From Escherichia coli (lineage in GTDB: Bacteria > Pseudomonadota > Gammaproteobacteria > Enterobacterales > Enterobacteriaceae): a stretch of DNA of 64,000 bases. The stretch is taken from assembly GCF_041886205.1 (NCBI RefSeq), contig NZ_CP169029.1, one strand, 5' to 3'. The notes under the pieces are model-generated. The model was not told the DNA's origin. It saw only the letters and a program-made list of their open reading frames with translations, and searched no databases. How positions within the stretch are numbered: the stretch's first letter is position 1; every line of letters starts with the position of its first letter. The translations under genes were made by a program, and so were the position numbers. Shown here piece after piece: positions 13,889-17,311 of this stretch.

Positions 13889-14668
13889 TTAGTAGCTGCT
13901 GGCGCTCTTACCGTCGCCGTGGCCCAGCGCTTTCAACAGGCTTGCCAGCAGGCTGGAAGCGCCAAAGCGGTAGTGACGCGCATCTGCCCAGTCAGCACCG
14001 AACAGTTCATCTGCAATCGCGAGATATTTCTGCGCATCTTCCGCAGTACGCACGCCGCCCGCTGGTTTGAAACCAACGGTTTTTTCTACGCCCATATCAC
14101 GGATCACTTCCATCATGATGCGCGCGCTTTCCGGCGTCGCGTTCACAGCCACTTTACCGGTAGAGGTTTTGATGAAGTCCGCACCCGCTTTGATGGAGAT
14201 TTCAGACGCTTTACGGATCAGCGCTTCGTCTTTTAGTTCGCCGGTTTCGATGATCACTTTCAGCAGTACATTCGCTGCCGCGCAAGCCTCTTTACAGGCT
14301 TTCACCAGGTCAAAACCAACCTGCTCGTTACCCGCCATCAGCGCGCGGTACGGGAACACCACGTCAACTTCATCGGCACCGTAGGCGATTGCCGCACGGG
14401 TTTCTGCCAGCGCGATTTCGATGTCGTCGTTACCGTGTGGGAAGTTGGTTACCGTAGCAATACGGATTTCCGGGGTGCCCTGCTCTTTCAGTGTTTTGCG
14501 AGCAATCGGGATAAAGCGAGGATAGATACAGATAGCGGCGGTATTGCCGACCGGAGTTTTGGCCTGATGACACAGAGCAATTACTTTCTCGTCGGTGTCG
14601 TCGTCATTCAGGGTGGTCAGGTCCATCAATTTCAGTGCACGCAGGCTGCTTGCTTTCAGATCAGTCAT
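13889..14668 (-). CDS. deoC: deoxyribose-phosphate aldolase DeoC
   Basis: Translation [29 protein letters not shown]... (259 aa); start trimmed to ATG at 14668. Confidence 0.93.
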
Positions 14669-14712
14669 TTCATTCTCCTGGCTTGTCGCCAATAAAATTC
14701 ACCTTGCGAGTT

Positions 14713-14728
14713 TGTTAGTATTCTAACA
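14713..14728. promoter_or_regulatory. DeoR operator O2 (deoP2), palindrome TGTTAGTATTCTAACA
   Basis: 16-bp near-perfect palindrome 45 bp upstream of the deoC start; exactly 599 bp centre-to-centre from a second such palindrome, matching the known deoP1-deoP2 operator spacing. Confidence 0.6.
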
Positions 14729-14925
14729 TCTACTCCGCAACACACTTCGATATACATCACAATTAAGGAAATCTACTTACAAGTTTGCATCACTGTAATG
14801 CGATCTGGTTCAAATAATTCACTTTCAAATGAATGCGTCAGTGGTGGCAAACGCATCAGGATCAAAGTGAACATCACGAAACTTCTTACAATGGCGCATC
14901 ACCTTCGGCATAAAAGGAAAAGAAG

Positions 14926-16476
14926 ATGCCCACTTCTCATGAAAATGCACTGCAACAACGTTGCCAGCAAATTGTCACCAGCCCAGTGCTTAGCCCGGAG
15001 CAGAAGCGCCATTTTCTGGCTCTGGAAGCAGAAAACAATCTGCCTTATCCGCAGCTTCCTGCCGAAGCCCGCCGCGCGCTGGATGAGGGTGTAATCTGCG
15101 ATATGTTTGAAGGTCATGCGCCGTACAAACCGCGCTATGTCTTACCCGATTACGCCCGTTTTCTGGCGAACGGTTCCGAATGGCTGGAGCTGGAAGGCGC
15201 GAAAGATCTTGATGACGCACTCTCTCTGCTGACCATTCTTTACCACCACGTACCGTCGGTCACATCGATGCCGGTCTACCTGGGGCAACTGGATGCGTTG
15301 TTGCAACCGTATGTTAGAATTATAACACAAGACGAGATCGATGTTCGAATAAAACGTTTCTGGCGTTACCTCGACAGAACCCTGCCAGACGCCTTTATGC
15401 ACGCCAATATCGGCCCGTCTGATTCGCCCATTACCCGCGCGATCTTACGTGCAGACGCAGAGTTGAAGCAGGTTTCACCGAACCTGACCTTTATCTACGA
15501 TCCTGAAATCACCCCTGATGACCTGCTGCTGGAAGTGGCGAAGAACATCTGTGAATGTAGCAAACCGCACATCGCCAACGGTCCGGTGCATGATAAAATT
15601 TTCACAAAAGGGGGCTACGGGATTGTGAGCTGTTACAACTCACTGCCGCTGGCGGGTGGTGGCAGCACGCTGGTACGCCTTAACCTGAAAGCCATTGCCG
15701 AGCGCAGCGAATCGCTGGATGACTTCTTTACGCGCACTCTACCGCACTACTGCCAGCAGCAGATCGCCATCATCGATGCGCGGTGTGAATTCCTCTATCA
15801 ACAATCACACTTCTTTGAGAATAGCTTCCTGGTGAAAGAAGGGCTGATTAACCCTGAACGTTTTGTGCCAATGTTTGGCATGTATGGGCTGGCGGAAGCG
15901 GTTAACTTGCTGTGTAAGAAAGAAGGGATTGCCGCGCGCTACGGTAAAGAAGCCGCCGCAAATGAAGTGGGTTATCGCATCAGCGCGCAACTGGCGGAGT
16001 TTGTCGCCAATACCCCCGTGAAATATGGCTGGCAAAAACGCGCCATGTTACACGCACAGTCGGGGATCAGTTCCGATATCGGCACCACGCCGGGCGCGCG
16101 TTTACCCTATGGCGATGAGCCAGATCCGATCACCCATCTGCAAACTGTCGCCCCGCATCATGCTTATTATTATTCCGGCATCAGCGACATTCTGACGCTC
16201 GACGAAACCATCAAACGTAACCCGCAGGCGCTGGTACAGCTTTGCCTCGGTGCCTTTAAAGCCGGAATGCGTGAATTTACTGCCAATGTCAGCGGTAACG
16301 ATCTGGTTCGCGTTACCGGTTATATGGTGCGTTTGTCGGATTTAGAAAAATATCGCGCCGAAGGTTCACGCACCAACACCACCTGGCTGGGCGAAGAAGC
16401 CGCACGCAACACTCGTATTCTGGAACGCCAGCCGCGCGTGATAAGCCATGAACAGCAGATGCGCTTTAGTCAGTAA
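14926..16476 (+). CDS. yjjI: glycyl-radical-enzyme family protein YjjI (PFL-like, unknown substrate)
   Basis: 516-aa ORF with C-terminal glycyl-radical-type motif RVTGY; followed by its cognate activase gene. Confidence 0.85.
15312..15327. promoter_or_regulatory. DeoR operator O1 (deoP1), palindrome TGTTAGAATTATAACA
   Basis: 16-bp near-palindrome 599 bp from O2; lies inside the annotated 5' part of yjjI. Confidence 0.55.
15591..15606. promoter_or_regulatory. possible DeoR distal operator OE (TGATAAAATTTTCACA)
   Basis: Weaker palindrome 279 bp beyond O1 (878 bp from O2), matching the remembered OE spacing. Confidence 0.4.
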
Positions 16477-17311
16477 GATTATCCCCTTCTCCTGCGTTGA
16501 CGGGCCAGGCAGTCGTCTGGCTCTGTTTTTGCAGGGCTGCAATCTGCGCTGCAAAAACTGTCACAATCCGTGGACGATGGGACGTTGCAATGACTGTGGG
16601 GAGTGCGTGCCACAGTGTCCGCATCAGGCATTGCAGATTGTTGACGGCAAAGTGGTGTGGAACGCTGTGGTTTGCGAGCAGTGTGATACCTGCCTGAAGA
16701 GGTGTCCGCAACATGCCACGCCAATGGCGCAATCCATGAGCGTGGACGAAGTGCTTAGCCATGTCCGCAAAGCGGTGCTGTTTATTGAAGGGATAACGGT
16801 AAGCGGCGGCGAAGCCACGACCCAACTGCCGTTTGTAGTGGCGCTGTTTACTGCTATCAAAAACGATCCGCAACTGCGCCACCTCACCTGCCTGGTGGAT
16901 AGTAACGGCATGTTGAGCGAAACCGGCTGGGAAAAATTACTCCCGGTGTGTGACGGCGCAATGCTCGATCTCAAAGCGTGGGGGAGCGAATGTCATCAGC
17001 AATTAACCGGACGCGATAATCAGCAGATTAAGCGCAGCATCTGTTTGCTGGCAGAGCGCGGTAAGCTGGCGGAACTGCGTTTGCTGGTGATCCCTGGCCA
17101 GGTGGATTATTTGCAACACATCGAAGAACTGGCGGCGTTTATCAAGGGACTCGGCGATGTTCCGGCACGCCTGAACGCGTTTCATGCCCACGGCGTGTAT
17201 GGCGAGGCGCAAAGCTGGGCGAGCGCCACGCCGGAAGACGTTGAGCCGTTGGCTGATGCGTTAAAGGTGCGCGGGGTGAGCCGGTTGATATTTCCGGCGC
17301 TCTATTTGTGA
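16448..17311 (+). CDS. yjjW: glycyl-radical enzyme activating protein (radical SAM with ferredoxin-like Cys clusters) YjjW
   Basis: 287-aa ORF with several CxxC clusters ([32 protein letters not shown]); overlaps the yjjI 3' end by 29 nt. Confidence 0.85.

Follow-up and report, generated by a model that had tools for sequence, protein, structure and literature searches.

Operators that lie within coding sequence are well established for the lac and gal operons. lac O2 is located inside lacZ, lac O3 at the end of lacI, and gal OI inside galE, and as in the deo system these operators cooperate with the promoter-proximal operator by looping. The deo operators of Escherichia coli, the distances of 599 and 279 bp between them, and the looping mediated by DeoR are already known from textbook work of 1985-1989. 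The two deo promoters are located 599 bp apart (PMC3334521), O1 and O2 are separated by about 600 bp with OE placed about 300 bp further upstream, and DNA looping has been reported for this arrangement (PMC8053113). The DeoR palindromes have been quoted as TGTTAGAA-TACTAACA and TGTTAGAA-TTCTAACA (PMC5326754), and one of the deoCABD promoters has been stated to be "in an upstream gene, yjjI" (PMC6389913). Here we examined the corresponding region within a 64,000-nucleotide stretch of an E. coli genome (assembly GCF_041886205.1, contig NZ_CP169029.1), hereafter referred to as the window. A preliminary description of the window had claimed that three DeoR-type palindromes with the textbook O2-O1-OE spacing lie partly inside the annotated yjjI coding region, and that either promoter and operator elements are embedded in coding sequence or the true yjjI start is located further downstream. 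The genes and operators of the locus are the following:

13889 to 14668, minus strand: deoC, the first gene of deoCABD (open reading frame listing, together with the annotation of K-12 and of 6EVA, a 99.9% identical strain)
14926 to 16476, plus strand: yjjI, 516 codons, encoding a YjjI-family glycyl radical enzyme (PF11230, TIGR04040, a conserved ATG, and an AlphaFold2 mean pLDDT of 91.7)
16448 to 17311, plus strand: yjjW, encoding the YjjI activase (TIGR04041, 395 bits)
14713 to 14728: deoO2, TGTTAGTATTCTAACA on the plus strand and TGTTAGAATACTAACA on the deo strand, palindromic at 7 of 8 pairs; the putative deoP2 extended -10 overlaps it
15312 to 15327: deoO1, TGTTAGAATTATAACA on the plus strand and TGTTATAATTCTAACA on the deo strand, palindromic at 7 of 8 pairs; the putative deoP1 extended -10 overlaps it
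15591 to 15606: deoOE, the distal operator, TGATAAAATTTTCACA on the plus strand and TGTGAAAATTTTATCA on the deo strand, with 6 of 8 palindromic pairs

All three 16-mers were found exactly as described, with start-to-start spacings of precisely 599 bp (O2-O1) and 279 bp (O1-OE), and both O1 and OE do indeed fall within the first 230 codons of the divergent 516-aa yjjI ORF. O1 occupies codons 129-134 (encoding V130-R131-I132-I133-T134) and OE occupies codons 222-227 (encoding D223-K224-I225-F226-T227). As the 279 bp between them amounts to exactly 93 codons, the two operators are placed in the same codon phase. The assignment of the palindromes to deo O2, O1, and OE was borne out by the published palindromes (PMC5326754) as well as by the published spacing (PMC3334521, PMC8053113), and the described DeoR sites thus match those of the window rather than departing from them. 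The published palindromes agree with O2 exactly and with O1 except for a single strain-specific base. The set is of textbook form in its spacing, but not in O1, which differs here by one base (window position 15322) from the perfect palindrome of K-12 MG1655. As a whole, the deoCABD set matches the DeoR operator type TGTTAGAA.TTCTAACA, a 16-bp palindrome. A search of the 64 kb with the perfect palindrome, allowing ≤3 mismatches, returned only O2 and O1 (0.18 matches expected). With the three-site consensus and ≤2 mismatches, only O2, O1, and OE were found (6 strand-matches vs 0.71 expected, a number reached in 0 of 100 shuffled sequences), a search that is partly circular because the consensus was built from these same three sites. 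A full-text literature search with the exact operator strings yielded only unrelated primer sequences among the top-ranked matches listed, and the loopometer supplement contained no operator sequences.

The deoC-yjjI-yjjW region was matched in 5,424 of 5,426 complete E. coli genomes, where it is annotated as deoC, yjjI, and yjjW, and the K-12 MG1655 sequence is colinear with it at 99.0% identity (27 substitutions and 0 gaps over 2.8 kb). O2 and OE are identical to their K-12 counterparts, with OE at the homologous position. yjjI and deoC are divergent and separated by a 257-bp intergenic region that contains O2, and the 3' end of yjjI overlaps yjjW by 29 bp. Among 80 yjjI loci, deoC was the divergent neighbor in 74; two of the remaining six were uninformative due to incomplete flanks, and the other four were Proteus loci in which yjjI-yjjW occurs without deoC. 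yjjW was found in 79 of the 80 loci, the lone exception being a sequence (L025) that stops short of the yjjI 3' end. In Proteus, yjjI directly follows serB-smp, which indicates that the deoCABD-yjjJ-lplA block is absent there. O2 is retained with 0-3 changes in most genera, 203-226 bp upstream of the yjjI ATG, and O2 and O1 lie between 589 and 612 bp apart in the different genera, the exact value of 599 bp being specific to E. coli. O1 is a perfect palindrome in 50 of the 68 other loci located beside deoC and is 1-2 bases off in the others, and OE is identical in 56 of these 68.

Putative promoter elements occur at the same coordinates. On the deo strand, the putative deoP2 extended -10 reads TGT TAGAAT (hexamer 14720-14725) and lies within O2, and the putative deoP1 extended -10 reads TGT TATAAT (hexamer 15319-15324) and lies within O1, such that TGnTA(G/T)AAT is common to O1 and O2 when the deoC strand is read. 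P2 would start near 14713 and, by way of the 599-bp repeat, P1 would start near 15312. With such a start, the P1 leader would be about 644 nt in length, of which about 387 nt would be antisense to the yjjI coding sequence. Neither P1 nor P2 was called in a sigma-70 and terminator consensus scan of positions 14600-15700, which is to be expected of a simple scan given their weak -35 and extended -10 elements, and we judged the scan to be uninformative. Several additional elements were placed around the promoters:

14746 to 14761, minus strand: CRP site 1 of deoP2, TGTGATGTATATCGAA (motif scan)
14799 to 14814, minus strand: probable CRP site 2 of deoP2, TTTGAACCAGATCGCA (motif scan, 2 mismatches)
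14852 to 14892, plus strand: putative yjjI promoter, with an FNR-like box CGCATCAGGATCAA at 14852-14865 and a -10 TACAAT at 14887-14892 (proposed from the sequence)
15337 to 15365, minus strand: region upstream of the deoP1 -10, at the -35/UP position, with lowered synonymous variation

CRP sites 1 and 2 are 53 bp apart center to center, with site 2 upstream and both at the expected distance from O2, a spacing that fits the known tandem CRP sites of deoP2 at -40/-93. A 16-mer identical to CRP site 1 is the CRP ChIP-seq motif of a yjjI/deoC intergenic peak in ETEC (PMC4287617). The same study places a second CRP ChIP-seq peak within yjjI, 544 bp from the intergenic peak (PMC4287617), which would put it roughly at O1/P1. 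As for yjjI itself, the gene is directly activated by FNR and has an FNR ChIP peak (PMC3688515), which falls at about window position 14833 after coordinate conversion.

Overall, we consider it very probable that this locus is the known deoCABD control region, with P1, O1, and OE situated within the genuine coding sequence of the divergent yjjI gene and with nucleotides in dual use. In this arrangement, P1 and P2 would act as tandem extended -10 promoters 599 bp apart, each with its -10 covered by a 16-bp operator (O1 and O2, respectively), and with OE located 279 bp further upstream of O1. Multimeric DeoR bound to O1, O2, and OE would loop the intervening DNA and thereby shut both promoters, until deoxyribose-5-phosphate releases DeoR; the binding, looping, and induction are taken from the literature (PMC8053113, PMC5326754), whereas the present analysis demonstrates the operators with their spacing, the fact that yjjI is coding, and the additional constraint on its nucleotides. 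Since P1, O1, and OE lie inside the yjjI coding sequence, the same nucleotides would serve two purposes. The codons of O1 and OE would specify YjjI residues in loops or at helix ends, where the protein family permits variation, and the DNA itself would be held almost invariant by selection for recognition by DeoR and RNA polymerase. The P1 transcript would also cross the putative yjjI promoter, and the O1-O2 loop would enclose this promoter together with the 5' end of yjjI.

This geometry raises an additional, non-exclusive possibility, namely that the embedded deo elements also control yjjIW and that nucleoside availability modulates its expression. DeoR occupying O1 and OE could act as an obstacle to RNA polymerase elongating through yjjI, and P1 could drive antisense transcription over the yjjI promoter. 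P1 (about 15312, minus strand) does point toward the yjjI start codon at 14926 and toward the putative promoter of that gene at about 14852-14900, the divergent deoC-yjjI arrangement recurs in the great majority of loci, as described above, and the O2-O1 distance is held within its narrow range. However, our literature search revealed no expression link between DeoR and yjjI and no paper naming both, nor any that combines the terms intragenic, deoCABD, and promoter, and yjjI is instead co-expressed with anaerobic FNR/nitrate genes (PMC3228777, PMC3688515). The conserved deoC-yjjI synteny could also result from simple inheritance. Thus, we regard control of yjjIW by the deo elements as a tentative proposal that is rather unlikely on present evidence. 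A more specific version, in which bifunctional deo elements might couple YjjI-YjjW to deoxynucleosides through DeoR looping and a roadblock at O1/OE combined with deoP1 antisense transcription over the yjjI promoter and the first 129 codons, seems slightly more doubtful still. If it were correct, the juxtaposition of deoC and yjjI would be regulatory, perhaps even metabolic, rather than accidental, and the variant base in O1 (see below) would be predicted to shift the expression of both deo and yjjIW.

If DeoR operators are embedded in yjjI, their conservation should exceed that imposed by the protein. We examined synonymous codon entropy in 7-codon windows of a codon alignment of 65 deoC-adjacent enterobacterial yjjI sequences. 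The lowest value in the entire gene was found at OE (0.02 bits, z = -4.0) and the second lowest at O1 (0.13 bits, z = -3.6), relative to a gene mean of 1.10 bits. After amino acid normalization, a permutation null for the gene-wide minimum gave P < 0.0005 for O1 and P = 0.001 for OE, in a test that assumes exchangeable columns on a single common tree and draws upon an uneven set of taxa with many Citrobacter and Enterobacter. A third synonymous dip at codons 507-513 corresponds to the 29-bp overlap with yjjW (P = 0.046). Codons 138-144, which correspond to the P1 -35/UP position just upstream of O1, were also lowered (z = -2.5 to -2.6) and were not significant on their own (P = 0.21). Positions 15350-15365 constitute the most conserved 16-mer of yjjI, and the conservation upstream of the P1 -10 is partly attributable to a conserved KRFWRY peptide that is common to Proteus. 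It should be noted that a dip at codons 295-301 (15808-15828) was considered as a potential extra site and rejected, as it is less widely conserved and yielded P = 0.57 once the degeneracy of F, E, and N was taken into account.

Conservation of the nucleotides at codons 129-135 and 222-228 might alternatively derive from constraint upon the YjjI protein, mRNA structure, or codon usage rather than from operator function. Within enterics, amino acid conservation at O1 and OE is indeed high (0.94-0.95), and part of the flanking conservation, the KRFWRY peptide, extends to Proteus. In the wider YjjI family, however, the same segments are among the least conserved: in distant homologs, the modal-residue fraction was 0.36 at O1 and 0.34 at OE, compared with 0.52 for the gene as a whole and 0.59-0.75 for the flanks, and both segments adjoin indel positions. 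The AlphaFold2 model places them at helix ends and loops. At these sites, Proteus YjjI has comparable residues (YVG.LT and QDAVFGK), but the DNA that encodes them is unrelated and departs from the perfect-palindrome operator consensus at 6-12 bases. The O1 codons are rare ones (AGA, CTA, which is ATA in the window strain, and ACA), a scan of positions 14300-16000 against Rfam gave no match at E ≤ 1, and what is conserved at the DNA level coincides exactly with the DeoR palindrome given in print (PMC5326754). O1 and OE therefore reside in parts of YjjI that tolerate any sequence, and the sequence there is dictated by DNA rather than protein. Likewise, the occurrence of YVRILT and DKIFTK in deoC-adjacent enterobacterial YjjI, at two loops that are variable in the family, can be attributed to codons that double as operators. 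From these comparisons, O1 and OE are conserved beyond what their host coding sequence requires, and we consider it highly improbable that protein, mRNA structure, or codon usage explains the conservation in place of operator function.

The dual-use reading further depends upon the 5' half of yjjI being translated, and several comparisons indicate that it is. PF11230 aligned with residues 22-504 over its whole 485-position model (732 bits, E 3e-220), and TIGR04040 aligned with residues 11-504 (786.5 bits vs a cutoff of 498.3). The yjjI ATG and the N-terminal peptide occur at the same position in the 80 loci, from Escherichia to Proteus. For codons 1-230, nucleotide entropy was 0.38 at the first, 0.25 at the second, and 1.19 at the third codon position, with a ratio of third-position to first- and second-position entropy of 3.8; in codons 231-516, the three values were 0.34, 0.23, and 1.20 and the ratio was 4.2. 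The similarity of these values points to equal purifying selection on YjjI in both parts of the gene. In a search of 1.84 billion representative proteins, full-length YjjI homologs were about 490-530 aa in length, and 17 homologs with 33-57% identity all aligned from the N-terminus, with 16 invariant residues within residues 1-230 and an overall conservation of 0.53 for this portion and 0.51 for the remainder. AlphaFold2, when run on the homolog alignment, predicted a single confident structure for all 516 residues (mean pLDDT as listed above, pTM 0.91), with block pLDDT values of 78-98 across residues 1-230. The RVxG glycyl-radical motif is likewise intact, as all 19 sequences compared share R462 and G465, and the local sequence is LVRVTGY. 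Thus, the conservation and coding signal of codons 1-230, which the preliminary description had proposed to check, proved to be the same in periodicity as in the rest of the gene and to include conserved residues. Of the two options it had offered, the embedding of operators in coding sequence stood, and the downstream yjjI start did not. A misannotated yjjI start, with the protein beginning downstream of OE and with O1, OE, and P1 in a noncoding leader, would suit the usual view of promoters and operators as intergenic elements and could call upon further in-frame ATG codons downstream, but has next to no chance of being correct given where the family alignments begin, the ATG shared with Proteus, the invariant residues, the uniform periodicity, and the confidently folded N-terminal 230 residues. 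By these comparative criteria, it is confirmed that yjjI is annotated correctly and that O1 and OE, together with the upstream deo promoter placed in yjjI by earlier work (PMC6389913), are located inside genuine coding sequence.

The single departure of O1 from the K-12 MG1655 sequence is a polymorphism within E. coli. At window position 15322, the deo strand has T in the window and G in MG1655 (TGTTAGAATTCTAACA). The T allele converts the -10 hexamer from TAGAAT to the consensus TATAAT, renders the palindrome imperfect, and changes YjjI residue 133 from leucine to isoleucine. It is a minority allele: of the 5,086 complete E. coli genomes that gave a match, 90 contained the exact 59-mer around it, and all 72 aligned loci of other genomes lacked T at this position. 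Its carriers include BW25113, Keio-derived strains, and C600, whereas MG1655 and W3110 both carry G. Over the roughly 50 kb from hsdS to deoD, BW25113 and MG1655 exhibited only three differences: the hsdR stop, the yjjP stop, and the base at 15322. This suggests that the O1 base came into BW25113 along with hsdR514. The window strain differs from BW25113 by 35 mismatches in 3,059 bp and is not K-12, so the T allele exists on at least two haplotypes. BW25113-derived strains differ from MG1655 in their O1/P1 allele, and if the deo elements did also govern yjjIW, the effect predicted above would concern the window strain, BW25113, and C600 alike. A more practical consequence of the dual-use arrangement is that yjjI knockouts or recoded versions, such as the Keio yjjI deletion, also remove deoP1, O1, and OE.

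What is described here is the K-12 deo regulatory region, and its layout was known before this analysis: genome annotation shows deoP1 within yjjI, and the same has been stated in print (PMC6389913). Our analysis therefore has little bearing on discovery; it settles the question of the start site in favor of the existing yjjI annotation. We see the synonymous-constraint analysis as a neat demonstration and not as a discovery in its own right, yet it provides a clean quantitative example of dual-use DNA, in which two operator-sized stretches account for the strongest synonymous constraints in a 516-codon gene and occupy the loops that YjjI can most easily do without. Compared with the K-12 deoCABD region, the window has the same locus, gene order, O2 and OE sequences, 599 and 279 bp spacing, P2 CRP sites, and placement inside yjjI, and it differs by the one O1 base (T in place of G at 15322, deo strand) and the resulting L133 to I substitution in YjjI. 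Within the YjjI family (TIGR04040/PF11230 and, for the activase, TIGR04041), the protein encoded here is full length and above the curated cutoffs, has the RVTG motif and an overlapping activase gene, and has nothing atypical about it. The locus also differs from the lac and gal systems. In those operons, only auxiliary operators are intragenic, and they reside in the operon's own gene or in the regulator gene, whereas in deo an unrelated divergent neighbor accommodates a complete promoter together with the primary operator of that promoter and a distal operator, and the P1 transcript is antisense to this neighbor.

The O1 operator of deoCABD lies inside the yjjI coding sequence and overlaps the predicted -10 element of deoP1; within it, the window strain differs from MG1655 by one base. 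The features considered are as follows (window positions).

14852-14892, putative class II FNR promoter of yjjI (half-site ATCAA in CGCATCAGGATCAA, with the -10 element TACAAT)
15249-15264, weak CRP motif assigned to the yjjI-internal peak (CGTACCGTCGGTCACA)
about 15249-15300, yjjI-internal CRP peak region (ETEC ChIP-seq)
15322, single-base difference from MG1655, inside O1, the deoP1 -10 element and yjjI codon 133
15808-15828, raw synonymous-entropy dip, yjjI codons 295-301 (FFENSF; z = -2.7)
16444-16476, yjjI/yjjW overlap (29 bp shared)

On the deo strand, sequence comparison revealed a T at 15322 in the window strain versus a G in MG1655, which turns the deoP1 -10 element from TAGAAT into the consensus TATAAT, abolishes the perfect palindrome of O1 by affecting half-site position 6, and changes YjjI L133 to I. 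The T allele would probably make P1 stronger and its repression looser. The 59-mer around this base has exact matches in 90 of 5,086 complete E. coli genomes, among them BW25113, Keio derivatives, and C600; it is absent from MG1655 and W3110, and none of the other species examined has the T allele. When BW25113 (L084, 4562000-4611900) was compared with MG1655 (L085, 4572000-4621900), only three bases were found to differ across the ~50 kb from hsdS to deoD: two are stops, in hsdR (hsdR514) and yjjP, and the third is the O1 position. That so few differences separate the two strains suggests that the O1 allele of BW25113 was co-transferred with hsdR514 out of another K-12 lineage.

A CRP ChIP-seq study in ETEC (PMC4287617) reported a peak "within yjjI"; its offset of 544 bp from the CRP peak at deoP2 places it roughly at O1/P1. 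This signal could have arisen indirectly, through DeoR looping or through RNA polymerase at P1, rather than from a genuine CRP site. The O1-O2 loop encloses the whole putative FNR promoter of yjjI, whose -10 element lies about 41.5 bp downstream of the FNR box centre. This arrangement is possibly that of a class II promoter, and an FNR ChIP peak reported in the literature (PMC3688515) converts to a window position close by, at about 14833. Elsewhere in yjjI, the third-strongest dip in synonymous variation corresponds to the yjjW overlap (codons 507-513, P = 0.046). The dip at codons 295-301 lost significance once two-fold codon degeneracy was corrected for (P = 0.57), and more distant genera do not share it.

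Among the comparison loci L003-L078, the O2-O1 distance ranges from 589 to 612 bp among genera, and the 599-bp distance occurs only in Escherichia and Salmonella. Allowing ≤3 mismatches, O2 had no match in the intergenic region upstream of yjjI in ten loci (Kluyvera, Pseudocitrobacter, Yokenella, an unclassified Enterobacteriaceae isolate, Hafnia, and Edwardsiella); an eleventh, L012, is uninformative due to its truncated upstream flank. In Proteus (L079-L082), yjjI has no operator-like sequences, and serB and smp are followed directly by yjjI-yjjW (e.g., L080:953-2989), without the deoCABD-yjjJ-lplA segment that lies between these pairs in E. coli. The Proteus yjjI locus provides an outgroup for dating the rise of P1, O1, and OE.
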